A DNA stretch of 64,000 bases from Bdellovibrionales bacterium (GTDB lineage: Bacteria > Bdellovibrionota > Bdellovibrionia > Bdellovibrionales > JAUICD01). Both the position numbers and the translations under genes were made by a program. Under the pieces are notes generated by a model, which saw only the letters and a list, made by a program, of their open reading frames with translations, was not told the DNA's origin and made no database searches. The DNA lies in the NCBI GenBank assembly GCA_965262715.1, contig OZ253553.1, forward strand, positions 2,016,001-2,080,000, written 5' to 3'. The stretch's first letter is position 1, and each line of letters opens with the position of its first letter. Positions 8,900 through 59,555 of the stretch are shown piece after piece.

Positions 8900-9075
8900 T
8901 TTTCTTAACATGATGTTAAGTAACGAGAACATCCTGCTACTAAAAATGAACATTTGAGATAGTCAGCTACTTATTGAAGGCGTGAGCCCTCAGGCTTATT
9001 ACCCGAAAATAGCCAGAGGCTCGCCTCGAGAGGCTTGCCTTGAGAGGCTTGCTTCGATATTTGATAAATATTTTT
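8900..9075 (+). repeat. Structured intergenic repeat, family A (with 14-nt expansions)
   Basis: TTAACAT head, CTAAAAATGAAC stem, GGC-GTGA-GCC hairpin. Confidence 0.75.
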
Positions 9076-9161
9076 TTACTCTTTTTAAATTTACTCAGTC
9101 TAAAAGAGCTAATATTTTAGATTTTATGGAAAATTGATGAGCTATTCGAATTGCTTCACAA

Positions 9162-9830
9162 TTATAGGGTTGCTCCAGCTGCGCGTAAAGATTTTGCTAC
9201 TTCAGTATGGTCTTTGTCTTCTGCCCACTTTAAAGCCGTCCTGCCACGATCATCTCTTTTATTTACATCTGCTCCCCTACCAATTAAGATCTTTACAACT
9301 TCAAGATGATCATGTTGAACACCAATTATTAAAGCTGTAGTGCCACTAATGAAAGTATTCACTTTTGCTCCGGCCTCCAGCAAAGTTTCTACAACTTCAA
9401 AATGGCCATATCTAACACCAAACCTTAAAGCTGTGTAATTATATTCATTTACATCATCCACATTGGCCCCTGCTTCAAGAAACGTATTTACAATATAAAT
9501 ATCTTCACACGCAGTACCCCGCATTAAAGCTGTATTACCATATTTATTTGCTGCATTCACATCCGCACCTGCTATAAGCAACGCATTTATTACATCCAGC
9601 CGACAGAGAATGGTTGCCTGTATCAAAGGTGTTTCACCATATTGATTTGCTGCATCCACATTTGCTCCATTTTCTACAGCTATTTCTACACATTCAACTG
9701 TTTCACAAGAAAAAAGAGCTTGGGTAGCTTCGGGAGCTTCGGTAGCTTCGGTAGCTTGGGTAAATTTTGTAAACCCTGTTAAATAAAAAGATAAAAGGCA
9801 AATGATTATATTTAAAAGTTTAAATTTCAT
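9162..9830 (-). CDS. Secreted ankyrin-repeat protein (canonical type, distinct from the array)
   Basis: GETPLIQA, GNTALMRG, GADVN repeats; signal peptide; 9-bp tandem repeat (ATE/APE) after the signal. Confidence 0.92.
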   Translation of the reverse strand: MKFKLLNIIICLLSFYLTGFTKFTQATEATEAPEATQALFSCETVECVEIAVENGANVDAANQYGETPLIQATILCRLDVINALLIAGADVNAANKYGNTALMRGTACEDIYIVNTFLEAGANVDDVNEYNYTALRFGVRYGHFEVVETLLEAGAKVNTFISGTTALIIGVQHDHLEVVKILIGRGADVNKRDDRGRTALKWAEDKDHTEVAKSLRAAGATL

Positions 9831-10337
9831 AACAATCCTATTTTGTTAAAAGTTTTTACGGAACATCAAAATTAGAACATGCAATAAATAAGCCAAACTA
9901 AAAAGCAATACATAGGGTACAGCCCCAATAAAAGTGACCTTTTTAGGCTTTCTAGTGACAATACGTGTTACCCCAGAATAAATTGTTACCGAGCGATTGA
10001 GTATAAGAGTTAAGTTATTCCTTTGTTTTCCTTTGTTTATTATATAAGTTGAGTAATCTAAAGAATTCATCTAACTTTTTTTCTCTTTCTTTAACCAGTT
10101 CAAATGGGTTGAGTTTTCTTCTTTGCTTTATAAGAGCTTCCTTTTGCTTTTCGGATATATGAGAGGATGTCATTAATCTTTCATAAGAGACGAATTAGCT
10201 TGGATTTGATTCATCAAGGATTGGATGTACAGCTTGTTTTGATGTTTATGGCAAAGCCAAGTAGCTCTCGAAAGGCTTATCTCGAGAGGTTTGCCTCGAG
10301 AAGTTGGTCTATCTTGAGGGATACAACATTTCCCTCC

Positions 10338-12068
10338 TCACAAAAAGAAATCTGTGATGACCCTAATACATTCTTTGATATAAAGAGATGATAGTCCACT
10401 GGCATACGGCAAATGAACTTCATATTCCATGGGCACTGATCGAATATAACCTCTTAGGTTTTCTGTCACCTCTACTCGTCTTAAGTCCTCTAATATCTCT
10501 AGAGTGTCAGCCTCTATATTTTGTACTTGTTGAAAGTTTGTATCTCTAGAGTTCTGGACAAAAACAGGTACTAAAGAAGACAATAAAGAGAGATTCCGAT
10601 TTAAAATATCTATTTGAAGTGTATCATTAAATAAAAAAGGAGGTTGTGTTAGAGAACTTGTCACCTCTGATGCAACAATTTGTGGAATGTTTTGATAGAA
10701 GTTCTCAAGGTCTTGAGTGTCTAATATACCTTCTCTTAAAACAAGATTAGTTATATCTTCTAATGTTCCAAAGTTTCTAATTAAGACATTTCTTGCTAGT
10801 AACCTTGCTTCTCTCATCCATTCATTTGCCTCCTCCATTAAGGAAGCTCTATAAACTTCCGGTAAATCATCTTTCCACTTGCTCCATTCTCGAGATGAAA
10901 AATAAAATATTTCAGTTATTATGTTTGGACAATATATTCCTATGATATCTCTTTGCCATCGACCTAACCCCAAGCAAATTCCTATATAAGCAGTCATTAA
11001 AATGCTGTCTCTTTCAGCCTCAGTTCGTATATATTCATAATAATTATTGTTACTGATAATTATCTCTTCAGCAACTTCACCTGCCAACAAAACCGCCATT
11101 TTATTGATTTGAATAGCTTTAGAGAAATAATAAGGAGTATATTCAACATTTGCTACACCTTTATAAGCTATCCATATTCCATCATGCAACTCTATTGAAG
11201 GGACTATAGAAAGGGAAGCTCTCATACTCATATCATCTACAAGTGCTCTTCTGACAAGCTCATGAGCAGGTTCATGAAAAGAAGTTATAACAAAACCTAT
11301 AATAGAACTAGCCGTATATACTAATTGAGGCTTAGTTTCTTCTACAATCCAATCAAGTTCTTTTATGTATCTTCCTTCTTCATCCTCTACAATAACTCCT
11401 ATATTGACTCTCTCTATATCTCTATAATTATCAACGAAAGTATTTGTTGGACTCAGATCTTTTAAATAAAGCGTAAGAGTATGATCTGGAGGAATATTCT
11501 CTCTTCTTAATAAATCCTCTAATGATCTTAAAAGGTTATGATGAATTTGATAAGATAAAACAGGTGGAGCGCCTAATATCCGCATATTAGATCCAAGTGT
11601 AAAATCAAAACTGCGACCTCCTCCTGTCCTTACTCCTAGATTTATCTCCCTGATTGCAGTGATATCTTCAGAAGTGCCTTTGATATTCTTGAGATACATC
11701 CAAATACTTGTATCTGCAATATTATTCCCTTCCAAAAAATCATTCAAAAATGGGTCAAAACGAACAGCTGAATTATCAATAGCAATGCTGTTTATAAACT
11801 GATCTCCATATCGCAGAAATTCACCTGTCCGTATCTCTAAGGCATGTACAATATTACCGTATTCAGTTTCATTAAGAAACTGTATTCTATAACCTCTTTG
11901 ACCTATACTTCTTGCTAAATCATAAAGATGAAATTTTGTGACTTCTTTAACAATGTGATAAGAAAAAGGGGAAGTTAAATAAATATGATTAACTTTTGCA
12001 TATACGTTATAATTTGCAAAAAGACCCATCATTAGAATAAAAAGTATGAGCTTTGTTTTTAGAATCAT
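10338..12068 (-). CDS. Secreted protein with peptidase M41 (FtsH protease)-like domain
   Basis: HEPAH (HExxH) and VLLAGEVAEEII motifs; signal peptide; no Walker A seen; start chosen at the ATG (ORF track starts at 12089). Confidence 0.65.
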   Translation of the reverse strand: MILKTKLILFILMMGLFANYNVYAKVNHIYLTSPFSYHIVKEVTKFHLYDLARSIGQRGYRIQFLNETEYGNIVHALEIRTGEFLRYGDQFINSIAIDNSAVRFDPFLNDFLEGNNIADTSIWMYLKNIKGTSEDITAIREINLGVRTGGGRSFDFTLGSNMRILGAPPVLSYQIHHNLLRSLEDLLRRENIPPDHTLTLYLKDLSPTNTFVDNYRDIERVNIGVIVEDEEGRYIKELDWIVEETKPQLVYTASSIIGFVITSFHEPAHELVRRALVDDMSMRASLSIVPSIELHDGIWIAYKGVANVEYTPYYFSKAIQINKMAVLLAGEVAEEIIISNNNYYEYIRTEAERDSILMTAYIGICLGLGRWQRDIIGIYCPNIITEIFYFSSREWSKWKDDLPEVYRASLMEEANEWMREARLLARNVLIRNFGTLEDITNLVLREGILDTQDLENFYQNIPQIVASEVTSSLTQPPFLFNDTLQIDILNRNLSLLSSLVPVFVQNSRDTNFQQVQNIEADTLEILEDLRRVEVTENLRGYIRSVPMEYEVHLPYASGLSSLYIKECIRVITDFFL

Positions 12069-21500: not shown

Positions 21501-21602
21501 ATGAAAAAACATTTATTCGTCTTTCTTTATATTTTCATTGTCTTTTCTTCTTTTGCAAACAGCCAACAAGAAGCGCCACTCTCAATTGAACAGATTTTTT
21601 GA
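21501..21602 (+). pseudogene. 5' remnant of a secreted-protein gene
   Basis: RBS, then MKKHLFVFLYIFIVFSSFANSQQEAPLSIEQIF and a stop at the edge of a repeat block. Confidence 0.45.
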
Positions 21603-21631
21603 TGCAATAAACTGATGATCTAAGGATAAAA

Positions 21632-21882
21632 TTTCCTAACATTGTATCAAAAAACGAGGGGTATCTGCTCTACTCAAAATAAACGGATTTTTGAGACAGT
21701 CAGCCTTTTATTAGGGGATACATCCCGTAGCGTGAGCCTTCATACTGACTGTCTAAAAACTGCCAGAGACTCGCTTCGAGAGACCAGATACATTTTAGTG
21801 CAGTTTCCTTAACATCATGTTAAAAAACGAAAAGTATCTCCCTCCTAAAAATGGTCAGAGACCAGTTTATTTTGAGTGAGAC
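21632..21882 (+). repeat. Family A repeats (one full, one internally deleted)
   Basis: TTTCC(T)TAACAT...TGGTCAGAGACCAGTTTATTTTGAGTGAGAC. Confidence 0.8.
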
Positions 21883-22083
21883 TGGTGGACACTGTCGCAA
21901 CCAATTCGAACCCTTTCAGAAATAGATTTTGAGTTTTGTTGTCAAAGCCGAGAACTCTTTAAATATCAAGAAATTGCCCCAGTAGTTAAAAAATTGATCC
22001 AACTTGGTATGAATGATCGTCAGATTGCCTTACAAGTTGGAGTTGATCCTAAAATGGTAAAGAAAGTAAAGTTATATTTATAG
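21883..22083 (+). pseudogene. Start-less ORF: putative C-terminal HTH segment of the island recombinase
   Basis: Open frame WWTLSQPIRTLSEIDFEF...LIQLGMNDRQIALQVGVDPKMVKKVKLYL* starting exactly at the att core. Confidence 0.65.
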
Positions 22084-22244
22084 CTTATGACACTATGTAT
22101 TATTGAGACGTTTAAACAAGGAGTTACACGATTTAAATTACAATCTCTTTTAAAGTATATCTTTAGACGAAGTCTTTTTACAAGATACCTGATATTTTGA
22201 AATTCAAATATCCAAGCTTAACTAAACACCTTTGGCAAGTCTTT

Positions 22245-24272
22245 TTAAGATGAAATATTGGACATGTTTTTTACTTCAGTAGATATTTTCTTGCATTCAT
22301 CTCCTGTTAGAGTCGTTCCGGATATAAAATCCTCTTTTAAGTGAGAAAGATATTGAGAAAGACTTTGAGTTTTTGTTTGCCCATGTATGCAACGTTTTGT
22401 TGAATAGCTTAAAATACAACAGACCTTAGCTCTTGTTATCCCTACAAAAAGCATCCTTGCACCTTCCCTCTGCAACTTATCATTTACTTTTTGTCTCTCA
22501 TCAGGCAATACTCCATTCTCCAACCCAGGTATAAAAACAATATCACTTGATAGGCCTTTACATCCATGTAAGCTCATAATTTTTACTGCTTCTCTTTCCT
22601 CCATTTTTTCTACTGGTATTTCAAGCCTCTTATAAATGGATTTAATCACTATTTCTCTATTTTTAAAGTTATCGGTTCTTATGTAGTCTTTTAATTCCTG
22701 AAGAGTTGCTTGCTCAGGGATGTCCTTTAGAAATTCACATAAGGATTTTTTATCTTCACTGTCAATAGGGTTTATTAATTTTATAATGTTATCTTTCCTT
22801 ACTTTAATCGTATCGGTATTTTGCCAATCAGCAATTCTTTTTAATTCTTGACGAATTTCTTGAATCACTTTTTTGGCTTTTTTATTGAAAATTTCAAGTG
22901 AACTATCTTCAAAAACTTTTCTAAAATTCAGTGGAGAAGAGATAATTTTATTAACTATATGGTTAATAGTTTGTGGGCCCACTCCATTTTTAATTTTAAG
23001 AATAGATCTAAGTGCAATATAATCATCTTGTCTTTCATAAGGTAGTCCAATTAATCTGATCCAAGCCAGAAGTGTTCGACCGATTTTTGTATCTCGAAAA
23101 TTTTCTTCTTTAAGTAATTCACATCTTATTCCCAGTATATCAAGAAATCCTTTAATCTTAGGAAACTGCACTGGTCTATTCTTTAACAATATAAAAATTG
23201 AATTATAAGACAAACCAGCTTCTTTGAGTTTTTTACATGACTTTGCTATAGCTTCAGCCTCTTTTGTATATCCTCTAAATTTCCAGTATTTGGTTACCCC
23301 ATCTATTTTTGGATTAGAATTTTTGCACATTGAAATATATTCTTTCTTTATTCGTTTTTCACCTCCATATCTTTCAATCAAATCAATAGCAAGTTCTAAA
23401 ATAAAAGGAGGGCACCTAAAGCAATGAGAAAGAAAATATGTTTTTGAAGAAGGGTACTTTTTATCAAAATCTTGTATACCTATAGGTGATGCATGCCGAA
23501 AGCTATAAATACTTTGATCATCATCCCCGGCAACAAAAATTTTAATACCTGACTGAATAATTAATTCAACAAATTTTAAATCCATCGGATTTAGATCTTG
23601 AAACTCGTCAATAATTAAATAAGTAATATTTGTAAAAGATAAAATATTTCTTGAAGAATCTTTTTCAATTTCTTTTACACATGATCTAATTATTTCACCT
23701 GGTAAAATTGCTGCATACAAATTTGTTCTGGATTTATAAAATCTGTCAAAATCTTCTATTTCTTCTTTAGATATAATATTTTCTTCAGGAACAAGCTCGC
23801 TATTTGTTGCCCATATAGACTCATGGTGCTTCCTCATTTCAGCAGCACGTTTTTTATTACAATTTTTTGATATAGAAAATTCCAAATCAAAAATATTTTC
23901 TATTTCCCATTCATCTAATACTAAAGGATCAACTGGAAATTTACTTAATTTCCCTGAAGATTTAAGAATTTTTAAAGCAAGTGAGTGAAGTGTTGAAACA
24001 TTAATATCATCTATATTCATTATACTATTACAATTTTTACAGTATTTATAGATACGTCTCTTTAAATCATTAGCAGATGCACGGGTATAAGATATTACAA
24101 AAATATTTTTAGGTTTAGCTCCCTGGTTTAGCAAATGTGAAACTCTTTGCTCTATAACTTTTGACTTTCCCGTTCCAGGTCCAGCAATCAAGCGAATTAA
24201 CGAAGAGCTATCCTGAGCAGCTTTAGCCTGGTTTTCTTCAGCTTCTTCGCATTCTTGAGGATCAAACCCCAC
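22245..24272 (-). CDS. UvrD/Rep-family SF1 helicase
   Basis: AGPGTGKS, STLHS, IDEFQD, AGDDDQSIYSFR, CFRCP, MSLHGCKGL, FVGITRAK. Confidence 0.93.
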   Translation of the reverse strand: MGFDPQECEEAEENQAKAAQDSSSLIRLIAGPGTGKSKVIEQRVSHLLNQGAKPKNIFVISYTRASANDLKRRIYKYCKNCNSIMNIDDINVSTLHSLALKILKSSGKLSKFPVDPLVLDEWEIENIFDLEFSISKNCNKKRAAEMRKHHESIWATNSELVPEENIISKEEIEDFDRFYKSRTNLYAAILPGEIIRSCVKEIEKDSSRNILSFTNITYLIIDEFQDLNPMDLKFVELIIQSGIKIFVAGDDDQSIYSFRHASPIGIQDFDKKYPSSKTYFLSHCFRCPPFILELAIDLIERYGGEKRIKKEYISMCKNSNPKIDGVTKYWKFRGYTKEAEAIAKSCKKLKEAGLSYNSIFILLKNRPVQFPKIKGFLDILGIRCELLKEENFRDTKIGRTLLAWIRLIGLPYERQDDYIALRSILKIKNGVGPQTINHIVNKIISSPLNFRKVFEDSSLEIFNKKAKKVIQEIRQELKRIADWQNTDTIKVRKDNIIKLINPIDSEDKKSLCEFLKDIPEQATLQELKDYIRTDNFKNREIVIKSIYKRLEIPVEKMEEREAVKIMSLHGCKGLSSDIVFIPGLENGVLPDERQKVNDKLQREGARMLFVGITRAKVCCILSYSTKRCIHGQTKTQSLSQYLSHLKEDFISGTTLTGDECKKISTEVKNMSNISS

Positions 24273-24376
24273 TTTTATTTCTCCTGTTAAATCAGAGTTA
24301 GAAGGTCTATTTTAAAAAAAATATTATTCAATTATAAGAAGTAATTTGTAAGTTACTTCAATATAACTTATAAAAC

Positions 24377-27300
24377 CTATTTTTCAAGTTCTTGTTGAAG
24401 TTTTTCAACTTCTGGGCACCCCATTTGAGCTAATAACTCAAACATTTCTTTAAAAGATTCTTTATTTTTTAAGTCGCCTTTTAGTCTTTTAATAAAGTAT
24501 TTAGCGATCTTTTCAAGTTCATAAAAATCATAAGTTGAGGATTCTCTTTTTCTATCTTTTAAAAGATGTTTAAAAAGTTTTAATGTGAGTTGAGGATATT
24601 TTTGGATTGGATTATATTCTTCGGTATCATGTGTTAGTCTATATGAAATAAGTGAGATATCTACTTCTGAACAATTTTTCCATTGAAGGATCAAATCGAT
24701 AGCCTCTTCATAATCCTGCTTATCAGTTAAAACTAGAGATAATCGTACTAAATTACTTTTTTCTTTGTTGTTTAAAGGTTTCGGTCTTCCGTATGTTCTT
24801 TCTTCCAAGTATTTTTTTATCCATCTTCTCCAAGATTTTGATCTCATTTCTGGTTTTGTATCTTTGAGTTGATTTGAGAGAATATAAGCAAAACTTTCAA
24901 GAGATTTTTCTGAAGCTTCTTGAATAAAATTGAAAAGCCATCCATTATCTAGAGGGGGTTTTTCTGCATATAGAGATAAAGCTGCTATGTAGTCAATAAA
25001 TCTTTCTTGTATTCTATCTTCAAAAACTTGAAGTCGATCAAATAATTTTTCAAATAATGGACGCATTTGAATAAAAAATTCATTAGACCATCTGCATGAA
25101 TAAAGATAACCTTCCCAAAAATGTTGAAATTTTTCATTTTTTTCTATATCAAAATATGGAATAATTTCTTTTTGTACCCACTCTTTTTCTATGGAATATA
25201 AAAAATAGATTTGCTCTGCTATAATGATTTGTCCTAATTCACCTTTATAAGAACTTTCTTTGAGTATAAGCTCTAAATTGTTTTTAATTCTTTGAGGTAT
25301 TTGTCTTTTATTTGATTTTTTTACAATTATAGCAAGTATATGATGCCAAAATTTAGATAATTTTCCTGCTTTACTATTTACAGAGGAAAACATCCAGTCA
25401 ATTTTTGCTTCTTTGTTTTCTTTAGAAAAAATAGATTCTTTTTTTATGATTTCTGCTTCATAACAATCAGTTTTGTCTTCCACTTTCCAAAGCTTTTCTG
25501 CTAAATCCATAGCATGATCTAACTCAGAAAATGGTATAAAATTCTTGTCTTTTTTAATTCCTTCCAAAAGTAGATCTGATGAATAATAAGCAGAATTTTT
25601 AAGAATAAAATGATGATCTGTAAGATAAGATAACACTGTTTGCCACTGTTTCTCATTTAAGTTAGAGTCTGCCCAGCCTTGTAAAATACTACTCCATAAG
25701 TCAGTTGTTTGATGAGATTTGTCAGTCAATAAATTGCAAAGCTTTAAACTCCAATCAAAATTACGAACTATGGCTTTTTGAATACTAGAAAGCAATGACC
25801 ATCTAGCATTAAAACGCTCGTCCCACTTTAGAAGTTTTTCTAAATGTTCTTCTAGATTCATTTGAAGTAAATCATCTACAGAATAAAGTGGCTTTCCAAA
25901 ACCCATCCTTATTGCAGAAGATCCTATTTTATGCCTAAAAGAAAAATCAACAGGCGGTACAAACTGATAATCTAATGATTCATCTTTTAATCTATCGATA
26001 GCATTATCAATTAAATTGCAGTCTGAAGATGATTCTTTTAAAAAGTACAGATATCTAAGGGCTTCAGGTTTGCTCTTAAAAGGCAATGATTTTATAAGAT
26101 TTATAAGTAAGACTTTATCATTCTTATCATTAGTGTTCAAATAAATCTCTTTCATTAATCTACAAAGCTCATGATATAAATAAATATCATTCATTAATTT
26201 ATTTTTTTCAAGCCAAGCAAGCTTTTGTGAAGGTGTATAACATTTTGTTTCTCCCATAGCAAAAACAGCAAATCGTTTAAGCCATATCACATCTAAATCA
26301 ATCCATTTTAAAGCCGTTTCAGTGAGATGTTTTGAATTTAATGATATCCATTCTATAACATCAGAGAAAACATCTAAGATAAAATGAAGTTCTTGATTAT
26401 CTGAAGTGTTTTTGTTATTTTTATGATGTCTTTCAATAGCAGGTCTTTTATTTGAAATTAAATCAGTTACTTTTGAATCTTTTTGGAAGAGATGATAAAA
26501 GTCATGTACTTCTCTGATATATTCTTGTAAAACATAAAACAACTCCTCTCCAAAAATATCTAGTTTATTTTTAAATAATTCATTCCAAATATTTATGATA
26601 TACATCTTATCTTGAATATTTAAAGAAAAAGCTATGTTTATTTTTTGACCTTGAAGAGTATGTATCATGTCTAACTCTTTTTTATCTTTTAATTTCTTTT
26701 TTATTTCTTCGAAATATTCATACATCTCAGATTTCATGATTTTTAACTTAGGTTTTAGCAAAAAAATAAATATCTTAAATGTTATTTTTTGAATATTTAG
26801 ATCTTGTGAGAATTTATATTCATCAAGAATATACAAAAGTAAATCGTTATTATTTCTGTCCGTAGCTTTATCTATCAAAAATGTGATCCAGAATTCTAGA
26901 ATATTGATATTTTCAGTTTTGGAGAAACTTTCATGTTTTTTTCGTATTGTACATGCAAGTTTATCCCAAAATATAGGCTGAATGTTTTGATTGTATTTTT
27001 CAATAATTTCAATTAGATATTTATGATGTTCAGTTATAAATTGATCTGTCAACCAGTCAGCAAGATATTGAGTTGATGAGAATTCCTTTATTTGGGAGTT
27101 TGAGTCAAATATATCCCTTAACAATCCTTTTTCATCTGTCCATTTTATCCACTCAGACTTATTTGCATATTTTATAAAATACTTTACACATTGTTGGTCT
27201 TGAATTCTATTTAAAATGTAGTCAGCTTCTTCTTTATCTATTGGAGGCATTGCAGATGCAATCTCTCTAATTTTTCTTTCATGCTCAAAAATTCCTCTAG

Positions 27301-28072
27301 ATAGATGGTCACTCCATTCTTTGACTCCTAAAATCAATTCTAAGTGATTTTTTTCTCCATTAGGATAAGTGATAGGAGTAAGTCCCAGTCGATTCCAATC
27401 TTTGTTTTTTTCATCTTCATTTTCAGGAATTAGGATAAACCTCGGACCTTTTGGAAGACCTCTTGATAAATAATCCATCAGCACATCATTATAACTATAA
27501 CCGATAAATAAGACTGTATTATGAAGCAGCATATCTTTGACAAACTTAGTAGCCCAGTCATCCAAAAAATAAGCTTGTGAGAAATCTTTATCTGTAAGAA
27601 CTAGACTCTTAAGATCCTTTTTGATCGATCCATGTAGATAAACCAATCCATTAAAACTTTTTCCTAAAGGCAATGCAGGGGCATAATAAGTTTCAGCCTT
27701 TAACTGATGTTTTTCTAAGGCAGATGAAAAATGAGTGTCAAAATTTGTTGTCACCAATCGTACTTTGTCTTTATGAAATAACTGTAAAAGGGAACTATGC
27801 AATCGATTAGATGTTTTTGAGGAAAATATGTCATAAGTAAGTTTTCTAATGTTTATTTCTAAAGCCTCCATTCTTCCCAGAACTTGTTCATAAGGTGGTT
27901 TGACTTGACTTTGAAATGGCGTGTTTTCTGCAAGTCTTTCGGTGAGTTCTTCCAAATCTGGAAGGTTAGAAGGATCTGCCTTTGACACACCTGCACCAGC
28001 AAAAATGACGAGAGAGCCGTCTTGTTGAGCATTTATAAGTTCTATTGGAATATCAATTTCTTTAAACAACAT
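24377..28072 (-). CDS. SIR2-like domain protein with long helical C-terminus (Dsr1/DUF4020-like anti-phage sirtuin)
   Basis: FAGAGVS, VTTNFD, YLHGS, LFIGYSYND; 1231 aa; downstream of R-M genes. Confidence 0.85.
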   Translation of the reverse strand: MLFKEIDIPIELINAQQDGSLVIFAGAGVSKADPSNLPDLEELTERLAENTPFQSQVKPPYEQVLGRMEALEINIRKLTYDIFSSKTSNRLHSSLLQLFHKDKVRLVTTNFDTHFSSALEKHQLKAETYYAPALPLGKSFNGLVYLHGSIKKDLKSLVLTDKDFSQAYFLDDWATKFVKDMLLHNTVLFIGYSYNDVLMDYLSRGLPKGPRFILIPENEDEKNKDWNRLGLTPITYPNGEKNHLELILGVKEWSDHLSRGIFEHERKIREIASAMPPIDKEEADYILNRIQDQQCVKYFIKYANKSEWIKWTDEKGLLRDIFDSNSQIKEFSSTQYLADWLTDQFITEHHKYLIEIIEKYNQNIQPIFWDKLACTIRKKHESFSKTENINILEFWITFLIDKATDRNNNDLLLYILDEYKFSQDLNIQKITFKIFIFLLKPKLKIMKSEMYEYFEEIKKKLKDKKELDMIHTLQGQKINIAFSLNIQDKMYIINIWNELFKNKLDIFGEELFYVLQEYIREVHDFYHLFQKDSKVTDLISNKRPAIERHHKNNKNTSDNQELHFILDVFSDVIEWISLNSKHLTETALKWIDLDVIWLKRFAVFAMGETKCYTPSQKLAWLEKNKLMNDIYLYHELCRLMKEIYLNTNDKNDKVLLINLIKSLPFKSKPEALRYLYFLKESSSDCNLIDNAIDRLKDESLDYQFVPPVDFSFRHKIGSSAIRMGFGKPLYSVDDLLQMNLEEHLEKLLKWDERFNARWSLLSSIQKAIVRNFDWSLKLCNLLTDKSHQTTDLWSSILQGWADSNLNEKQWQTVLSYLTDHHFILKNSAYYSSDLLLEGIKKDKNFIPFSELDHAMDLAEKLWKVEDKTDCYEAEIIKKESIFSKENKEAKIDWMFSSVNSKAGKLSKFWHHILAIIVKKSNKRQIPQRIKNNLELILKESSYKGELGQIIIAEQIYFLYSIEKEWVQKEIIPYFDIEKNEKFQHFWEGYLYSCRWSNEFFIQMRPLFEKLFDRLQVFEDRIQERFIDYIAALSLYAEKPPLDNGWLFNFIQEASEKSLESFAYILSNQLKDTKPEMRSKSWRRWIKKYLEERTYGRPKPLNNKEKSNLVRLSLVLTDKQDYEEAIDLILQWKNCSEVDISLISYRLTHDTEEYNPIQKYPQLTLKLFKHLLKDRKRESSTYDFYELEKIAKYFIKRLKGDLKNKESFKEMFELLAQMGCPEVEKLQQELEK

Positions 28073-28169
28073 ATTATTTTAGTAAATCCACTTGAACTTG
28101 AACTGTTAATAACGACTTTTTATATTAGGTTAATTAGAATTCTTTTAAATTTTTTCATTTTTTTAATCT

Positions 28170-31118: not shown

Positions 31119-31131
31119 AGTTATTAGTTCT

Positions 31132-33135: not shown

Positions 33136-33223
33136 ATTATTTTCCTAAGAGATATTGTTTTTTTAAACTATAACATCTGTAAAAAAGTAGACATTGACTT
33201 TTATTCTATGACAATAATAGACA

Positions 33224-33772: not shown

Positions 33773-33792
33773 TAGACACTGTCTATTATCTT
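33764..33792 (+). promoter_or_regulatory. sigma70-like promoter with palindromic operator in the spacer
   Basis: TTGCTA-17-TATCTT with ATAATAGACA-C-TGTCTATTAT (33769-33789). Confidence 0.55.
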
Positions 33793-34422: not shown

Positions 34423-34562
34423 AACAATAAAAAGGCAAAGAATTGCAAGATTCCACTGATAATAAAGTGCAATACCACATAAGATTGTCATTAAAATAGA
34501 TAGTATCTCATTCACAATAAGAAGGCTTTTTGAGACAATAAACTGATGATCTAAGGATAAAA

Positions 34563-34835
34563 TTTCCTTAACATTGTGTCAAAAAACGAAGGGTATCTCC
34601 CTCCAAAAAATGGTCAGGCTTTCTAGGTAATGACCTATTTGCTGACGGTGTAAACCGTCAGGGTCATTGCCAGAAAGTCGCCAAAAGATTTTCCTTAACA
34701 TGTTGTAAGAAAATGAGGAGTATCTCCCCTACTCAAAATAAACGGATTTTTGAGACAGTCAGCATTTTCTGAAGACGTGAGTCTTCAGGCTGATTGTCCA
34801 AAAATGGTCAGAGACCAGTTTATTTTGAGTGAAAC
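34563..34835 (+). repeat. Two family A repeats abutting the tRNA 3' end
   Basis: Same head, stems and GNRA hairpins (GACGGT-GTAA-ACCGTC; GAAGAC-GTGA-GTCTTC). Confidence 0.85.
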
Positions 34836-34911
<76 letters not shown>

Positions 34912-40261: not shown

Positions 40262-40281
40262 ACAGTTTTTCAATTTGGAGC

Positions 40282-40605
40282 TGTTTCCCTAAAATGCATC
40301 TCGCCTCTGGCGACTTTCTGGCAGTTAGCCTGACGATTAGCATCGTCAGAAAATAGCTAACTGCCTAGAAAGCCTGATGCATTTTAGTAGAAAGGATCCT
40401 CTCGTTTCTTTACTACATGTTAAGGAAATATAAAAAAGGGTGGATGGGTACAATTGCTGTCTCACTAAAAATAAACTGGCCTCTGGCCACTTTCTGACAG
40501 TAAGCCTGACAGTTTGCACTGTCAGCAAATAGCTTACTGTCTAGAAAGCTTGACTATTTTTAGCAGGGAGATACTTCTTATCTTTTTACACAATGTTAAG
40601 GAAAT
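40282..40605 (-). repeat. Two family A repeats, reverse orientation
   Basis: GTTTCCCTAAAATGCATC...ATGTTAAGGAA and GTCTCACTAAAAATAAAC...ATGTTAAGGAAA. Confidence 0.85.
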
Positions 40606-40697
40606 CGGATCTTCGATTTTTTACTTAAAAGGAAAGGCGGATGGGTACAATCATCCGCCTTTCAAAGAGATAAAAAATGATCCTTTGGATCTTATGT

Positions 40698-42342: not shown

Positions 42343-42383
42343 TTTTATTCTCCCCTTTTTAATTAATAACGTAAAAAAATATT

Positions 42384-42565
42384 TTCCTTAACATTGTGTA
42401 AAATAACTTGGGATATTTCCCTCTAGTAAAAATGCATCAGGCTTTCTAGGTAGCCAGCTACTCGCTAAAGACGTGAATGTCTTTCTTACTGACTGCTAAA
42501 AAGTCACCAGAGGCTTACCTCGACGAGGTTCGCCTTGAGAGGCGAAATACATTTTTAGCGAAACA
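42384..42565 (+). repeat. Family A repeat with expanded terminal hairpin
   Basis: TTTCCTTAACAT head...TTTTTAGCGAAACA tail. Confidence 0.8.
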
Positions 42566-42693
42566 AAACACAGCACTACTTTTTGTTTCTTATGTATTCT
42601 CAAGCTGACTGTGAAAGGTAAAAAAACGGCTAAAAATATCAAAAGTGTAAATCTTCAAAGCCACATCAAAAGACTAGATTTTAATTTAACTGG

Positions 42694-42943: not shown

Positions 42944-43893
42944 ATATTGATAAAATGTTTGTATCTAAGCAAGACAACTCCGTATATTTTCACTTTAAGA
43001 GAGTGAAAACACAAGAAAAAATTTCCCTTAACATCGTGTAAAAAGATGAAGGGTATCTCCTTCCTAAAAATGAACAGGTTTTTGAGACAGTCAGCATTTT
43101 ATTGGCGGTGTTAACCGTCAAGCTGACTGTCCAAAAATGGCTAGAAGCCAGTTCATTTTTAGGGAAACAATACAAGAAAAGATTTCCTTAACATTTTATA
43201 AAAAAAATAAAAAGTACCTTCTTACTAAAAAATAAACATGCTTTTGAGGTAGTCAGCTTTTTTTTCTGAAGATATAAATCTTCAGGCTGACTACCCAAAA
43301 GTGGTCAGAGACCAGTTTATTTTTAGTGAGACAAAATATTGATAAAATGTTTGTATCTAAGCAGGACAACTCCTTATATTTTCACTTTAAGAGAGTGAAA
43401 ACACAAGAAAAAATTTCCCTTAACATCGTGTAAAAAGATGAAGGGTATCTCCTTCCTAAAAATGAACAGGTTTTTGAGACAGTCAGCATTTTATTGGCGG
43501 TGTTAACCGTCAAGCTGACTGTCCAAAAATGGCTAGAAGCCAGTTCATTTTTAGGGAAACAATACAAGAAAAGATTTCCTTAACATTGTGTAAAAAAATA
43601 AAAAGACCCTCATTACTAAAAAATAAACGGTTGAGGCAATGAGCATTTTATGAGGGCGTGAGCCGTCATGCTCATTGTCCAAAAATGGTCAGAGACCAGT
43701 TTATTTTTAGGGAAACAATGCAAGAAAAATTTCCCTTAACATTATGTTAAGAAACGAGGGGAGTCTCCCTACTAAAATGCCTCAAGCTTTTTAGGCATTG
43801 CCCTATTTGCCAAACGGCTTGGGGCCAGTTTGGGGGCAATGCCAAAAAGTCGCTAGAGGCGAGAGGCATTTTAGTGAGACAGCATTTTAGTGA
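42944..43893 (+). repeat. Tandem cluster of five family A repeats including a 392-bp-period duplication
   Basis: Units start near 43021, 43183, 43413, 43575, 43730; ~42944-43210 is repeated at ~43336-43600. Confidence 0.9.
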
Positions 43894-44771
43894 AACAGCA
43901 TTAATGATTTAGTTCGTTTGTGAGTTTTAGAGAATTTTATATCTTTTATTTTGCTTTCAAAAAAGTGTCTCCCCCAGATATCTAAAGACTCTTTCTTTTC
44001 CTGAGTTAGAAACTTTCTTACATCCATTACTAATTCATTCCATTTAATAAGGTGAACTTTTTTTAAAAGTTCCTTTTGAATAAAGTGAGGAGTTATTGAC
44101 AATGATTTATTTTTCCATGGACCCCATTGAGATAAAGCATTTTTAAAAAAAGGTAAATTTGGTTCTACTCCTTGAGAAATATACCATAAAAGATCATACC
44201 AGTCTCTCCCTTTACAAAAAGGACGACATAAAATAGCATGAAGTTTTCCAGACATCAGACTTGGCAGATCGTATACAGGAATAGGGAAATCTACAGGAAA
44301 GCTTAAATATTTAATTTGTTCATTTGCTCCTATGGGAGGATTGATATCTACTTCAATTTTTACTTTAACTTTTTTTCTAGTGTCTTGTTGATACTTAAAT
44401 AGGACTGTTTTTTTGATGGAATCGTCTTTTAGAAATCGACCTCTTACATTTTGATCAATAGAAATTTTTTGATTTATGGACAAGTTATATCCATAGGTAT
44501 TCATAAACTCCATAGCCTTTTCTAAATAAGTTATGATATTAAAATTAGGTTCTGGAGATCTTGTTGAAAAATCTAAGTCTTCAGAAAAACGATCTAGATT
44601 GTGAAGAATTCTCAAAGACGTACCACCTAAAAAACTAACTCTTTGAAAAAAACCAGCCTTGTAAAGAGAATATAAAGCTACTTCTTGAGTAATTTCTTTA
44701 AGAGCATTAAGTTCTTCTTCAGAGCTTTTAGGATTATATCTATCTAGCTTTTTCTGTATAATATCTTTCAT
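43887..44771 (-). CDS. AbiEii-family nucleotidyltransferase toxin (type IV TA)
   Basis: FLGGTSLRI, RFSEDLDF, KVKIEVD, GKLHAIL, KGRDWYDL. Confidence 0.92.
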   Translation of the reverse strand: MKDIIQKKLDRYNPKSSEEELNALKEITQEVALYSLYKAGFFQRVSFLGGTSLRILHNLDRFSEDLDFSTRSPEPNFNIITYLEKAMEFMNTYGYNLSINQKISIDQNVRGRFLKDDSIKKTVLFKYQQDTRKKVKVKIEVDINPPIGANEQIKYLSFPVDFPIPVYDLPSLMSGKLHAILCRPFCKGRDWYDLLWYISQGVEPNLPFFKNALSQWGPWKNKSLSITPHFIQKELLKKVHLIKWNELVMDVRKFLTQEKKESLDIWGRHFFESKIKDIKFSKTHKRTKSLMLFH

Positions 44772-45433
44772 TTCAACTTCTTAACTATAAAATGAGCTAA
44801 CCTTTGAGTACTTTTCTTTTTATAGAGGTTACCTAAGTTTAAAATGTCTTGTGCTCTCCATCCTTGACTCAACTTGTATAAATCATTTAAATCAATTCTT
44901 AGATCATCCTCTATATCTTTGAGCGTTTTGTAAATATATTTTTTTAAATAAATCAAATCAAATAAAGATCTCATAGCAGTCGCTACAAGAAATCCTCCTT
45001 TTTTATCTTGATTGACTTCAAGGAAAAAAGGCTTAACTGGGGAATATGTAAAACTAAAGTTCCCTATAGGACTTTTGTAAAATTTCTTCTTCTGACTATA
45101 ACAGGCTGAAGTGATTTCATAAACAGTTTCAGGAATAACGCCATGAAATGATAAAGCAGATTCAAATGAAATATAACTTGGTAAGTATAAATGGTTGGCT
45201 AATGTATATTTGGAAAATTGTGTGTTTGGAAGATAACTTGAAGCCACTTGATTATTTAAAGAATAAAGCCCTCTTCTATATTGAAGAATATTCTTTTTTT
45301 TGATATGGTATGAAATGAGATTATGGAGAGCTGATGATTTTTTTTCAGGAAAAATCATTTTTAAATCTTCGTCAGTAAAAATAAGTCCTCGACTCATTAT
45401 TGTAAATTTCAGTTTTATTAAAAAAGATTGCAT
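44768..45433 (-). CDS. AbiEi-family antitoxin
   Basis: RRGLY, PSYISFESALSFHGVIPE; 4-bp overlap with the toxin gene. Confidence 0.9.
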   Translation of the reverse strand: MQSFLIKLKFTIMSRGLIFTDEDLKMIFPEKKSSALHNLISYHIKKKNILQYRRGLYSLNNQVASSYLPNTQFSKYTLANHLYLPSYISFESALSFHGVIPETVYEITSACYSQKKKFYKSPIGNFSFTYSPVKPFFLEVNQDKKGGFLVATAMRSLFDLIYLKKYIYKTLKDIEDDLRIDLNDLYKLSQGWRAQDILNLGNLYKKKSTQRLAHFIVKKLK

Positions 45434-45547: not shown

Positions 45548-45587
45548 TTATTTTTGTTAAAAAAGGATGAAATCAGATATCTTTTTG

Positions 45588-46010
45588 TATCACTTAAAAT
45601 AAACTGGCTTCTCGATGCAGGCCTCTAACGACTTTCTGGCAATCATAAAAAAAATAATAATTCTCAGAACTTATTCTTCTCTTGCTTTGTGGTCATCCAT
45701 ATGAGTGAAACAATACAAGAAAAAATTTCCTTAACATTTTGTAAAAAAATAATAAAGATCCACCTTACTAAAAATAAACGGATTTTTGAGACAGTCAGCA
45801 TTTTATTGAAAATGTAAATCTTCAAGCTGATTTGTAAATAACAACATTTTCCCTAACATGATATAAGAGAATAAAGACATTCTTCCTACTAAAATGCCTC
45901 AAGCTTTTTAGGCATTGTCCTATTTGCCAAACGGCTTGGGGCCAGTTTGGGGGCAATGCCAAAAAGTCGCCAGAGGCGAGAGGCATTTTAGTGAGACAGC
46001 ATTTTAGTGA
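45588..46010. repeat. Family A repeats (partial reverse, partial forward, full forward)
   Basis: Shared stems; last unit nearly identical to 43768-43893. Confidence 0.8.
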
Positions 46011-46606
46011 TACAAAAGTGGAACAACATATTGATAAATGGTTTGTATTTCAACAAAAAATGTTTTAATAATGCTAAGATGAAAAGTTATAACAGTGAAA
46101 TGATTCTTTACAATACTAATGATGGTCAAGTGAACATTGAAATCAAATTAGACCACAAGGCAAAAACAATCTGGCTTTCTCAAGCCCAAATGGCAAATCT
46201 ATTTAATATAAAATCTCATACAGTCAATGAACATATAAAAAAAATATATTCAGAAGGTGAATTAGACGAAACAGAAACTACTCGGAATTACCGAGTAGTT
46301 CGACTTGAAGGGTCAAGGCAGGTGGAAAGAAATGTTCTTCATTACAATCTCAAAATGATTTTAGCTTTGGGTTACAAAGTTCAATCGCAAAGAGGTACTC
46401 AATTTAGGGTTTGGGCTACAAAGCATTTAAATGAGTATTTGGTAAAAGATTTTGTAATGAATGACCAGAGGCTCAAGGACCCTGAAGGGTGGGATTATTT
46501 TGATGAAATACTCGAACGCATTAGAGATATTCGCGCTTCTGAAAAAAGATTCTATCAAAAAATAAAAGACATCTTTAGTGAAACAAGTGTAGATTATGTT
46601 ATTTAA
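46007..46606 (+). pseudogene. RhuM-family protein, 3'-truncated
   Basis: TIWLSQAQMANLF, HYNLKMILALGY, FRVWAT, ERIRDIRASEKRFYQK; stops next to an IS481-like end AAAAGTGTTACCTATGTCC; true start probably ~46079-46100. Confidence 0.85.
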
Positions 46607-49058: not shown

Positions 49059-49912
49059 AATAAGTTGTAGCTCCATACCTTGTTGTAACATGCGCAATGC
49101 AACTGCCTCTCTACCTTCTTCCCGACCTTCTTCTTTACCTTCATTAAATAATTTAGAAGCTGTACTTATCATAACTTGATCCTCCTTATTGGTAATGACC
49201 TCTCCTTCAAGTGCATCAAATACTGATTTTTCATAATCTGTGCCTTGTAGCATATATCTACTTAAAACACCAGCATATTCACGGTAGTCTGAGAGATTTT
49301 TACTATTTTACATAACTCAAATACTGACTTGATATGACTCTTTGTCATATCTGAAGCTACTTTTAATGTGTAACAAAAAGCTGAGGCAGTGCCCGCCTTA
49401 CTTTTTATGTCCTCTTCAGACTCTTTCCTTAAATCTACCACATTCGGACTGAAATTGAAAGCTGAAGCTCCAAACACCTGTTTTACTTCTGATGTTAGAT
49501 GAAAAGCTGTTTGCAAATCTGAAGATATATGAATGGGAGCCTGCCTATGAAGTAATAAAACTGTCATAATAGGATAAATTCTCATTTCTAAAAGTGCTAA
49601 GCTATATCTTAAAGCTTGAAGAAAAAGATCCTCCTCAGATACCTTATGACTCTTATGCTCTACAATAATAGCTATTAAGGCATCAGTATCAAAACCTTTA
49701 AGACCTACTTTAGCTATCACATCTGCATGACGCATTCGAAATTTTCCGCTAATTTCTTTTTGTAATACCTCTGTATCAATAAATTCTAATTGATTAAAAT
49801 CAATAGATTTAAACTTCTCAGGACTTAATCCAAACTTTAAAAAACTCTCAAATCGTGCTTTGTTTTTAAGACCCCATTTAGCTATTTTGTCGTGTTCTAT
49901 TTGTAAAGACAT
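49059..49912 (-). pseudogene. Rpn/YhgA-like PD-(D/E)XK nuclease, frameshifted and IS-interrupted
   Basis: HDKIAK, HADVIAKV, IVEHKS, LQALRY; 1-nt deletion near 49305; EGREEG C-terminus in another frame. Confidence 0.85.
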
Positions 49913-50568: not shown

Positions 50569-50745
50569 AAATCAAAACCATAGTAAGGATTTTTATTATA
50601 TTAAATCATAACATAAAAGTATTAAATTATTGTCGCATAATTCTTATTTTTTGTCATTAAAAAAGGCTTATAACTAGATAAGAGTATAAATTTACTTTAG
50701 CTCATAAAGATTTGAAATGATTCATTAAGAGAAATTAATAGAAAA

Positions 50746-51033
50746 TTTTCCTTAACATCGTGTAAGAAAGTGAAGGGTATCTCCTTACTTAAAATGAAGC
50801 AATCAGCATTTTCTTTCCGGGAATCTGGCAAACCGGCAATTGGGCAGACAGTGTCCGGAAACTGATCTCCGGCGAAAATAGAAACGATTTCCTTAACATT
50901 TTGTCAAAAAACGAGGGGAGTCTCCCTCCTAAAAATAAACGGATTTTTGAGGCAATGAGCATTTTATGAGGGCGTGAGCCGTCATGCTCATTGTCCAAAA
51001 ATGGTCAGAGACCAGTTTATTTTTAGTGATACA
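50746..51033 (+). repeat. Family A repeats; first unit interrupted by GC-rich octamer sequence
   Basis: Heads at ~50746 and ~50888. Confidence 0.8.
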
Positions 51034-51038
51034 ACAAA

Positions 51039-54482: not shown

Positions 54483-54879
54483 TTTAATAAGCCTTTGTTT
54501 ATTGCTTTTACTCAAAGCGTTAAAATCACGCCTACCTTAACACAAAATGGCTTTAAGACAAGTAGAGACCTATAATTTTTCTTGATTATCCAGGACATAG
54601 CCCATAGGAACCCGGGAGCCGTGACATGGAAAAACTATAAATTACAGTTCAAAATAAGATCCCAGCTCCCCGATACAGATTGCCGGAAAAACAAAGAGTT
54701 CGATTAAATAATCTATCTACTTTGAGTTTAAATACTATGTAAAATTTACAAAACATTCATTTTTCCTTTTATTTCTCTGCTGCTTTATGATACAACTACT
54801 TAAAAAATGGTCAGAGACTCGCATCGACTCGCATCGAGTAAGACCATGTGTATTTTTAATGAAACGAAAGGAGTTTGTT

Positions 54880-57539: not shown

Positions 57540-57594
57540 AAACCTTTATAAATACTATTTACTTTAACCTAAAATCACTATGCCTTCACAAAAT

Positions 57595-58779: not shown

Positions 58780-58804
58780 TAATTATTCCCTAGAAATATA
58801 AAGC

Positions 58805-58821
58805 AGCAAATTAGACACCAA
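58805..58821 (-). promoter_or_regulatory. sigma54 (-24/-12) promoter
   Basis: Minus strand TTGGTGTCTAATTTGCT = GG-N10-GC upstream of the VWA gene. Confidence 0.55.
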
Positions 58822-58954
58822 CTTGAAAATTATCTTTTTAAACATTATTTATTTTTTTCTAAGCTTTATTTTTCTCAAAGTGAGAGAAAATGCTGATCTT
58901 TAAAGGCTTTCTTCGGTGTATAATTACTGATCAAATGTTGAAAATTGTTTCACT

Positions 58955-59555
58955 GTTTCACTAAAATGCATCTCGCCTCTGGCCACTTTCTGGCAATGAC
59001 CCTGATGGTCTTACGCCATCAGCAAATAGGTCATTGCCTAGAAAACTTGATGCATTTTAGTAAGGAGACTACCCGCGCTCTTTAACAAAATGTTAAGGGA
59101 ATCGTTTATACCTAAAAATGTATCTCGCCTCTGGCCACTTTCTGGCGATAACCCTGATGACTCCATCAGAAAATGCTTATCGCCTAGAAAACTTGATCCA
59201 TTTTAGTAAGGAGACTCCCTTCGTTCTTTAACAAAATGTTAAGGAAATCGTTTATTATCTCACCGTCTATATCTTCTCCCTCTTACAAATCACCCAAATC
59301 TTTATAGACTAGCAAGAGAGTTGATGTTTTAAGCTAAAGACGAGATCTTCCGCAGAGTCATCGCTCTTTAGCGATGACTCGAGGACTTCGAGGATTAGCT
59401 TAAAACATCAAGTCAAAGATTTTTTCCTTTGTTTTTCTAAAAAACAATATCTCCCTTCACTCTGGCCACTTTCTGGCAGTAAGCTCGACGACTCTCGTCG
59501 TCGTAAAAAGCTGACTGCCTAGAAAGCTTGGGACATTTTTAGTAAGGAGAATATC
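58955..59555 (-). repeat. Three family A repeats, reverse orientation
   Basis: GTTTCACTAAAATGCATC...ATGTTAAGGGAA units at ~58955, ~59106, ~59450. Confidence 0.85.

Follow-up and report, generated by a model that had tools for sequence, protein, structure and literature searches.

A window of 64,000 nucleotides from a Bdellovibrionales bacterium carries many copies of a folded repeat. How does such a repeat spread? The movement of small structured bacterial repeats lacking transposase-matched ends is an old open question. In two genomes this family offers well above a thousand junctions to study, along with empty sites and a fold that is sharply delimited. The answer we favour, with a probability of roughly 0.45, is that the repeat spreads by target-primed polymerase copying into DNA breaks from its folded plus strand, which is probably RNA, through a putative polymerase.

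Copies in the window and their range

The repeat unit is ~145 nt long and is predicted to fold as a three-way junction. A profile HMM built from eight window copies matched 21 of the 22 copies given in an earlier note on this DNA; the remaining one, near 54800, lies below the threshold and is seen by eye as a degenerate P4 and tail. The copies, with two neighbouring genes, are as follows.

8887..9050, plus strand: copy without P1' and tail; P4 enlarged by short hairpin units
21623..21800, plus strand: full copy; hairpin insertions in P3 and P4
21801..21887, plus strand: copy with internal deletion, retaining head, leader, P4 and tail
34553..34685, plus strand: 3'-truncated copy ending within P4, then short purine filler
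34685..34835, plus strand: full copy; tail directly on the CCA end of antisense tRNA-Ala
34836..34911, minus strand: tRNA-Ala(GGC), adjoined by the element tail
40278..40429, minus strand: full copy, second in tandem pair
40455..40611, minus strand: full copy, first in tandem pair
42372..42569, plus strand: diverged full copy
43014..43171, plus strand: full copy, array of five
43175..43336, plus strand: full copy, array of five
43406..43563, plus strand: full copy, array of five; duplicated along with ~80 nt of upstream flank
43567..43719, plus strand: full copy, array of five
43723..43888, plus strand: full copy, array of five, then extra tail fragments
45579..45645, minus strand: 3' fragment (P2', P4, tail)
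45718..45832, plus strand: old copy cut in P2', then A-rich filler and new copy
45836..46004, plus strand: full copy nested in the 45718..45832 copy
49262..49912, minus strand: Rpn/YhgA-like (PF04754) ORF, 216 aa; candidate nickase family
50737..50820, plus strand: 5' fragment, then short heptamer-type array
50874..51038, plus strand: full canonical copy
54795..54870, plus strand: degenerate P4 and tail fragment adjoining a ribosome-binding site; below HMM threshold, seen by eye
58946..59109, minus strand: full copy, second in tandem pair
59111..59260, minus strand: full copy after long purine-rich filler
59425..59557, minus strand: headless copy

The source genome of the window (G000) gives 483 matches to the HMM, covering 2.3% of the genome and including 308 near full length, and a second genome of the same genus (G001) gives 1,352, covering 6.4%; the reversed genome, serving as specificity control, gives 0. 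Copies are almost all intergenic, reach high numbers and form mosaic tandem arrays, and in G001 there are 28 groups whose members are identical yet sit at unlike sites. No internal sigma-70 promoter was found in the repeat. When the best 20 candidates per genome were scored with model R1, an order-level sample of 151 genomes yielded matches only in G000, G001 and one bin (G004), and a phylum-wide sample of 151 genomes only in G000. The G004 matches are confined to three probably mis-binned contigs whose identity to G000 is about 90%. Viral and metagenome contigs held no match to the exact repeat pattern; at least 157 stretches of genome contigs do, every one checked being G001, and plasmid and phage sequences gave no match to the repeat.

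The earlier note had set the family apart from REP, attC and CRISPR repeats, which agrees with the absence of GTAG, of a RAYT and of a terminal GTT box. The Rfam covariance models, ribozymes included, gave no match at the gathering score and, by E-value, chance-level matches alone. Nor did the literature searched, mainly open-access, contain an account of the family or of a bacterial SINE such as we discuss below. The repeat is a mobile, structured, non-coding selfish element, and likely an undescribed one.

A covarying three-way junction

The head (TTTCCYTAACAT), P1, bulged P2, P3 and P4 are present as the earlier note described them, and the conserved tail, TTTTAGKGA(AAC), forms the 3' end. 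Stems were said to differ between subtypes with pairing kept, and they do: across 34 copies 97.1% of cells pair, against 82.0% in shuffles and 33-50% when partners are shifted 1-3 columns; 30 of the 42 pairs are altered on both sides in raw counts that include kinship among the copies. The arms of P1 match in 77 of 83 distinct copies in G000 and 426 of 479 in G001 (after shuffling, 24 and 106), whereas types of P1 and P2 are mixed among copies. The three-way junction is thus strongly covarying and its helices recombine as modules. The imperfect hairpins carry a conserved bulged A.

Many P3 stems do end in the GNRA loops reported previously (258 in G001), although 140 there are GNYA and the overall class is GNNA/RNNA rather than strictly GNRA; the P4 triloop, C(AGA)G, is nearly invariant in G001 (458/479). 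Because G-T pairs exceed A-C pairs (100 vs 38 in G001, 23 vs 6 in G000), the plus strand is taken to be the folded one, and it is favoured alike by RNA parameters (130/164) and DNA parameters (134/164). The fold z of one copy (50874..51038) is -6.7 as RNA and -7.0 as DNA. The claim that the element folds in one orientation therefore survives, whereas its action as RNA does not follow from loops and wobble pairs. Loops of the GNYA, ANNA and AGA kinds suit DNA hairpins, and since the P3 and P4 loops suit single-stranded DNA too, they and the wobble pairs cannot tell RNA from single-stranded DNA. A better, if indirect, case for RNA or a free single-strand template is made by the junctions.

Strand-biased A/G mutagenesis was not seen in near-identical G001 pairs (core A/G 22 vs C/T 21).

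Junctions and the search for a mobiliser

Filled and empty sites establish presence and absence of the element, in keeping with the mobility proposed in the earlier note. Of the solo copies, 84 in G000 and 133 in G001, 14 and 33 respectively have empty paralogous sites, not all independent; the window copy at 42372..42569 has one at G000:C1:2625454. Orthologous empty sites were seen between the G004 contigs and G000; in four sequencing runs the contigs broke off at the repeats, and none showed a clean empty site.

Insertion alters the target by no fixed size, the change ranging from a loss of 59 nt to a duplication of 105 nt. Duplications of the upstream flank that restart at the tail were found in 49 of 225 cases in G000 (7/500 control pairs) and 53 of 696 in G001 (13/500). 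The tandem copies at 40278..40611 have a repeated ~26 nt of upstream flank between them, a different filler following each repeat, and at rpsQ-rplN different subtypes alternate with one duplicated flank. Heads are preceded by purine-rich filler. Fillers that follow a truncated old copy (52 distinct in G000, 213 in G001; median 16 nt) are 66% and 65% purine, and A makes up 49% of the last 10 nt before heads compared with 29-32% farther upstream. Since many fillers are found at several sites, part of the filler is inherited and not made anew. The 3' end is ragged, consisting of GTGA plus 0-10 nt with short microhomology, and tails often run into internal positions of other copies (74/293 in G000, 635/1,069 in G001), mostly at loops and bulges with a 2-4 nt overlap. 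In G001, 117 inverted junctions lie exactly after TTAACAT, several with flank and head duplicated, a class that is absent from G000. Pairs with the 5' flank alone in common outnumber those with the 3' flank alone about threefold, 183:56 and 2,439:864, the pairs not being independent. Matches truncated at the 3' end exceed those truncated at the 5' end (101:67 in G000, 314:247 in G001), which runs against typical retroposons, in a count that is confounded because of self-targeting. The element also interrupts four-helix-bundle and Rpn genes.

Such junctions are unlike the products of a transposase or recombinase; the scars point to polymerase copying and away from cut-and-paste or strand transfer. 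Because variable target change, filler, ragged 3' end, self-insertion and 5'-flank inheritance all fit it, we favour target-primed copying that starts at the element 3' end, in the way that SINEs retropose. The same junctions largely refute a MITE mobilised by a resident DDE transposase through a weak head/tail inverted repeat, TTTCCCTAA...TTAGGGAAA, a reading that is very improbable. Some subtypes do have an imperfect terminal inverted repeat of 9-10 nt, and several IS families occur in both genomes, but there is no target duplication of fixed length, the ends of the five readable IS families do not match, the tail is internally paired in P1, and no ORF-bearing long form of the repeat was found.

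High copy number, intergenic position, tandem amplification and imperfect hairpins with a bulged A would also suit a REPIN/BIME-like route in which a RAYT or another HUH enzyme cuts single-stranded DNA and transfers the strand, and rolling-circle amplification forms the arrays. A hairpin-loop nick after TTAACAT recalls an HUH origin, and the available part of PMC3333891 reports that cleavage by TnpA-REP can prime synthesis by the host and generate tandem BIMEs. Strand transfer, however, does not yield untemplated fillers or variable deletions, G001 has no Y1 match, and the sole Y1 of G000 is IS200-type, scores 17 bits with the RAYT model (cut-off 80) and has no copy within 1.7 kb; we give this route little chance. 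The REP/BIME/REPIN-RAYT systems do resemble the repeat: their copies too are folded, non-autonomous and intergenic, number in the hundreds, form mosaic arrays, show compensating changes in their stems and require a mismatch or bulge. They differ, as far as that part of the source goes, in being 30-40-nt hairpins or doublets with a 5' GTAG and a RAYT, where we find a 145-nt three-way junction with no conserved 5' GTAG, no RAYT match and imprecise, filler-bearing junctions (PMC3333891).

The earlier note saw no obvious mobiliser in the window. It does in fact contain a fragment of an Rpn nuclease, a resolvase and DDE transposases, putative partners at most, and scanning the genome and its relatives revealed copies genome-wide but no HUH/RAYT, RT or IS110 mobiliser common to G000 and G001. 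An intact group II intron RT and an St85-type retron are encoded in G000. The retron is absent from G001, where no RT was detected by Pfam RVT_1, the G000 intron RT query or a local three-sequence profile (best E 0.44), the assembly being rated 90% complete. No match was found for Y2, in a search run without a positive control, for an IS110 recombinase in G001, or for DinB, Pol X, LigD-Pol or AEP in G000 or G001. There was no TnpB partner, PF07282 matches sitting in Cas12-type effectors. Readings of the repeat as an IS200/IS605 PATE (no ends common to the resident IS200/605), as an integron attC (recombinases only Xer-like plus a 185-aa tyrosine recombinase) or, for the head palindrome, as Xer/dif (no dif geometry) found no match.

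Expanded Rpn nucleases offer a lead, though only a lead, to a candidate partner, and figure in a DNA-level version of copy-in. Here plus-strand DNA would fold in a flap or lagging-strand template, an Rpn PD-(D/E)XK or hairpin-cutting host nuclease would give 3'-OH primers, and host Pol I/III would switch templates by microhomology. RpnA is reported to leave 3'-OH ends that permit joining through primer-template switching (PMC5350276, in the part available). The apparent lack of an RT in G001, the abundance of GNYA, ANNA and AGA loops and the concentration of insertion targets at hairpin loops favour this account, as do the 19 and 16 Rpn matches of G000 and G001 and, in G001, a same-sense copy upstream of 50% of 60 Rpn family members vs 11% of all ORFs. 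Yet the element-free G003 has 16 Rpn matches, most G000 Rpn genes lack an adjacent copy, there is no replichore bias (172/326), none of the polymerases sought is at hand to account for long purine fillers, and the account does not readily explain a template that is discrete and whose 3' end is defined. We regard the DNA-level account as conceivable but doubtful; if correct, it would describe a hairpin parasite able to live on a nickase and host replication.

The four-helix-bundle genes (PF05635) have a copy downstream in 10 of 11 cases in G001. As partners they were rejected: the 8 read of 19 G004 matches carry heptamer arrays and no copy. They form a mobile family of their own that is often a target.

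A candidate copying route and its possible trace at gene ends

Under target-primed copying, the reading we prefer, a break in the DNA would expose a free 3' end, a few bases of which would anneal to the ragged 3' terminus of the folded plus strand, and a candidate polymerase would copy the template up to the head. The 5' side might then be closed by homology, using an old head or a co-copied upstream flank, which would give X-E-X-E arrays and mosaic copies; alternatively it may be end-joined with a purine-rich filler, made by snap-back synthesis or untemplated addition or derived from an RNA tail of the PNPase type. Helices would be shuffled when the template switches from one copy to another, the copies retaining the three-way junction would be those re-copied, and a nick right after TTAACAT in resident heads could be the source of many primers. 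Non-LTR RTs are documented to switch templates end to end with 2-4 bp and to add untemplated bases (PMC8363836, in the part available).

A more specific form, tentative and in our view rather unlikely, is a bacterial SINE whose three-way-junction RNA recruits a non-canonical or host polymerase that reverse-transcribes and jumps templates. It would prime on DNA nicks or RNA 3' ends (tRNA CCA, mRNA ends, its own head), target its own copies and have filled 2-6% of two genomes without a dedicated transposase. A close parallel is given by eukaryotic SINEs, spread by target-primed reverse transcription, together with the end-to-end template switching of group II intron RTs and R2 RTs: a non-coding structured unit, variable target duplication or loss, extra 5'-junction bases, ragged-3'-end microhomology, concatemers and co-copied 5' flank (from the available part of PMC8363836). 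Unlike SINEs, the element is bacterial, has no poly(A) or LINE-derived tail and no partner RT in G001, and is strongly self-targeting; its RNA is putative. The G2L4 group II RT combines microhomology-mediated end joining, snap-back synthesis and terminal transferase activity and could make such junctions, but in the available part of that work it is a repair activity and not a parasite, and no such RT is found in G001 (bioRxiv 10.1101/2022.03.14.484287). An RNA step lacking a canonical RT would, if true, point to a new retro-copying activity.

Similar short repeats, proposed to be retro-copied in a bacterium, are the msDNA-like repeats of Nannocystis exedens that Lampson and Rice reportedly described in 1997 (cited in PMC6868368); no retron link was found here, the St85-type retron being confined to G000 of our two genomes. 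The Rickettsia palindromic elements (RPEs, ~150 bp; PMC10969869, in the part available) and the orphan repeats ERIC, BOX and RUP resemble the family in size, copy number, predicted stable fold and lineage restriction; likeness in sequence is not expected, and the copies here are almost all intergenic and their junctions carry a readable copying signature. A bacterial SINE, if real, may be the missing copying route of orphan repeats such as RPEs.

Co-orientation with flanking genes is not significant (64:48, p 0.16 in G000; 120:109, p 0.51 in G001). Among 1,124 orthologues, 23 have a copy on the same side in both genomes; these are mostly housekeeping or membrane genes and include no recognisable mobiliser.

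Tails meet tRNA CCA ends in 5 of 35 cases in G000 (0.11 expected) and 4 of 36 in G001, and at 21801..21887 the tail adjoins a tmRNA/tRNA-like 3' end, with terminal CCA, that lies in reverse complement. Tails also adjoin stop codons (17/39 in G000, 24/61 in G001) and ribosome-binding sites (10/30 and 14/87), so the CCA junctions are no proof of RNA priming and tRNA priming was downgraded. These positions, together with a P4 and flanking T-runs that score as a two-way terminator-like site and convergent gaps that are somewhat oftener occupied, could instead reflect a host-useful mRNA stabiliser or terminator spread by nothing more than ordinary duplication and gene conversion, while generic deletion would have brought gene ends near. 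That is improbable: unrelated empty sites are filled with new junctions, four-helix-bundle and Rpn genes are disrupted, nested fragments pile up and only one genus is involved. A parasite is preferred because new-site insertion, gene disruption, nested fragments and one-genus range all fit it. For such a parasite, repeated re-insertion may push tails outward to an essential base, and the positions at stop codons, CCA ends and ribosome-binding sites are as predicted by this outward creep together with selection.

Distribution and mobility of the repeat

A profile HMM built from eight window copies recovered 21 of the 22 positions at which an earlier note had placed some 20 copies; the copy listed at 54800 has no match to the profile and is visible by eye as a degenerate remnant of P4 and tail. 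With a refined profile, the 2.94 Mb genome holding the window (G000) gave 483 non-redundant matches, covering 67,268 bases (2.29%), and its reversed sequence, used as a control, gave none. The copy-richer G001, of the same genus, has 1,352 matches (6.44% of the genome). Covariance-model surveys, with 20 candidates scored per genome, detected the family in 3/151 genomes of the order (G000, G001 and the comparison genome G004), and only in G000 among 151 genomes drawn from the phylum. The G004 copies lie on three contigs only. These contigs (C1, C4 and C11) share ~90% identity with G000, ribosomal protein genes included, yet G004 belongs by classification to a different genus; they are therefore probably mis-binned, and within the genomes searched the family is effectively restricted to a single genus. 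Plasmids, phages and contigs of viral or metagenomic origin contained no match. In line with the suggestion of an undescribed family, Rfam returned nothing at the gathering score and only chance-level matches by E-value, and the literature searched, with incomplete coverage and ISfinder not compared, contained no description of it.

The proposed mobility is borne out by two filled positions in G004 contig C1 whose aligned G000 counterparts are empty. Empty paralogous sites were found for 14/84 solo copies in G000 and 33/133 in G001, counts in which rows are partly non-independent and some of the duplications come from arrays. In G001, 28 groups of identical copies (88 copies) lie at unlike flanks, which argues for fairly recent activity.

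A three-way junction fold

The head, TTTCCYTAACAT, is followed by a variable purine-rich leader of ~35 nt carrying two weak hairpins. P1 (12–14 bp) closes the three-way junction and leads through a linker of 2–4 nt to P2, with an invariant bulged A, and then through a pyrimidine bulge of 5–6 nt to P3; P4 is stacked between P1 and P2, and the 3' end is a tail, TTTTAGKGA, plus a ragged overhang, mostly AACA. The covarying fold described earlier holds across 34 copies with kinship ignored: 97.1% of cells pair, both sides change in 30/42 pairs, and the covariation score is 0.464 versus 0.178 when shuffled and ≤0.086 with slid partners. The P1 arms are stronger evidence. Although ~100 nt apart, they match in 77/83 (G000) and 426/479 (G001) distinct, strictly parsed copies, compared with 24 and 106 after arm shuffling. 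Because the arms match while P1 and P2 types occur in many combinations, the copies are mosaics filtered for fold.

The folded strand is the plus strand, running from head to tail (G-T 100 versus A-C 38 in G001), so the single orientation claimed earlier stands. Its reading as RNA is not separated from DNA, since P3 loops include GNYA and ANNA (G001: GNRA 258, GNYA 140; G000: GNRA 37, GNYA 9, ANNA 9) and one copy has near-equal fold z values of −6.7 as RNA and −7.0 as DNA. The P4 loop is C(AGA)G in 458/479 G001 copies.

Junctions and a proposed copying mechanism

Target changes range from losses of up to 59 nt to duplications of up to 105 nt, without fixed size. The upstream flank is duplicated, restarting at the tail, in 49/225 G000 copies (control 7/500) and 53/696 G001 copies (control 13/500), with first-of-array lengths of 36–104 and 37–200 nt, respectively. 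The rpsQ-rplN site has four copies, of differing subtypes, interspersed with repeats of one 50-nt gene end, and the window contains:

Window 40278-40611: tandem pair, copies alternating with duplicated upstream flank, two different fillers

Filler, the purine-rich stretch before a new head, is 66% purine in G000 (52 cases) and 65% in G001 (213), with a median of 16 nt, each distinct filler that follows a truncated older copy being counted once. One shared anchor precedes 79 heads with 42 distinct fillers; some fillers recur, and are thus inherited, and many in G001 fold back on the head (604 versus 333 for shuffled flanks). Beyond the tail come 0–10 extra bases and a short target overlap. Tails enter internal points of other copies in 74/293 (G000) and 635/1,069 (G001) cases, most commonly the P4 loop, and 117 inverted copies in G001 have their joint directly behind a resident TTAACAT; flank and head are duplicated in several of these, and no such inverted junction occurs in G000. 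In both genomes, copy pairs with only the 5' flank in common are ~3 times as frequent as those with only the 3' flank, and four-helix-bundle paralogues with the same filler and differing 3' junctions provide a direct view of the asymmetry.

Transposases, HUH enzymes and recombinases leave precise joints; those of the element point to a polymerase. Copying would start at the 3' end of the template, making the 3' junction new and leaving the 5' junction inherited or filled, an asymmetry predicted for such copying, as in target-primed reverse transcription. In that process, according to PMC8363836, 2–4 bp suffice for end-to-end switching and untemplated addition occurs. A template ending a few bases beyond a strong stem would fit RNA trimmed by an exonuclease, and PNPase is capable of tailing RNA with A-rich heteropolymers (PMC10989914). 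We put spread by an RNA route at roughly 45%, and consider a DNA-only route less likely.

In G000 the RT matches are an intact group II intron enzyme, a truncated copy and the RT of an St85-type retron. G001 gave no RT match by three methods and no Y1 or IS110 match; its assembly is a single contig with a completeness rating of 90%, and a helper may therefore have been lost or be extrachromosomal. Neither genome has a DinB, Pol X, LigD-Pol or AEP match, and a Y2 search, run without a ringing control, gave none. No ORF-bearing form of the element was found, and none of the readable IS ends matches those of the element. Rpn nucleases are expanded (19 matches in G000; 16 in G001, near element copies), and the RpnA enzyme of E. 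coli produces 3'-OH ends that a polymerase can extend (PMC5350276), but the element-free G003 also has 16 matches.

Antisense tails join 5/35 G000 tRNA/tmRNA genes 2–6 nt from CCA (0.11 expected), including the tRNA-Ala of the window, with none 13–100 nt away; G001 has 4/36, or 2 by a stricter count. This raised the idea of tRNA priming, which we downgrade since tails also lie ≤11 nt from stop codons of convergent conserved genes (17/39 in G000, 24/61 in G001, the tail itself supplying the stop in nine) and abut ribosome-binding sites of co-oriented genes (10/30 and 14/87). Outward creep of renewed 3' junctions, halted by selection, accounts more simply for all three contacts; priming from RNA ends may also occur.

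The scars resemble those of SINEs, and the ecology that of REPINs and RPEs. REP/RAYT and MITE identities were rejected on their defining tests (for the former, PMC3333891). A retroposon assignment would need an RNA or an RT, and the element cannot be filed there; we class it as an orphan structured repeat whose copying mechanism is unusual and can be read in part.

Other loci and repeat families

Four-helix-bundle genes (PF05635) are multi-copy (19 matches in G000, 14 in G001, 19 in G004; e.g. stretches L318-L325) and have variable arrays of 7-bp tandem units on their flanks; inverted repeats and a transposase are lacking. Present in G000, they are missing at the aligned G004 site, and 90 of 194 heptamer arrays in G001 then run into an element head. 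These genes and arrays look like a separate mobile family and are a frequent element target. Their proteins resemble DGR Avd. On G004 main contigs (L320, L323, L324, L325), a different structured repeat, unrelated in sequence to the element, lies near such genes.

A Cas12-type locus is common to G000 and G001 and absent from G002-G004 by the same search; no link to the element was found. In G000, one spacer has a self-match at position 156832, and single repeat-like motifs are scattered in G001.

Loci in the window and the two genomes
G000:C1:2589509-2607900: Cas12-type CRISPR locus, two large effector ORFs, ~60 repeats
G001:C1:235349-245430: Cas12-type CRISPR locus, two large effector ORFs
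G000:C1:1355417: second CRISPR array type, 24 repeats
G000:C1:2650522-2652294: retron St85-type effector and RT fused in one 590-aa ORF
G000:C1:2198524-2198955: four tandem degenerate tRNA-Trp-like gene copies before intact tRNA-Trp
Window 113-7842: tandem ankyrin-repeat paralogues, broken by IS5-type transposase
Window 21560-34911: defence island (UvrD, SIR2-domain protein, type III restriction-modification, resolvase)
Window 43887-45433 and 46007-46606: AbiEii/AbiEi-type toxin-antitoxin pair and RhuM-family ORF, between element clusters
Window 59845-62373: 842-aa ORF, long low-complexity Gly/Pro-rich repeats, no Pfam match

The defence island is bounded by two element clusters with a common upstream flank, which end at a tmRNA-like 3' end and a tRNA 3' end. 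Further families occur genome-wide in G000 (L016:11337-11686), including a 350–450-bp element beside IS30-like ends, and an inverted-repeat MITE with CTAGAAGCC-type ends often carries the three-way-junction element. In G001, the loops of long hairpin families are insertion hot spots.
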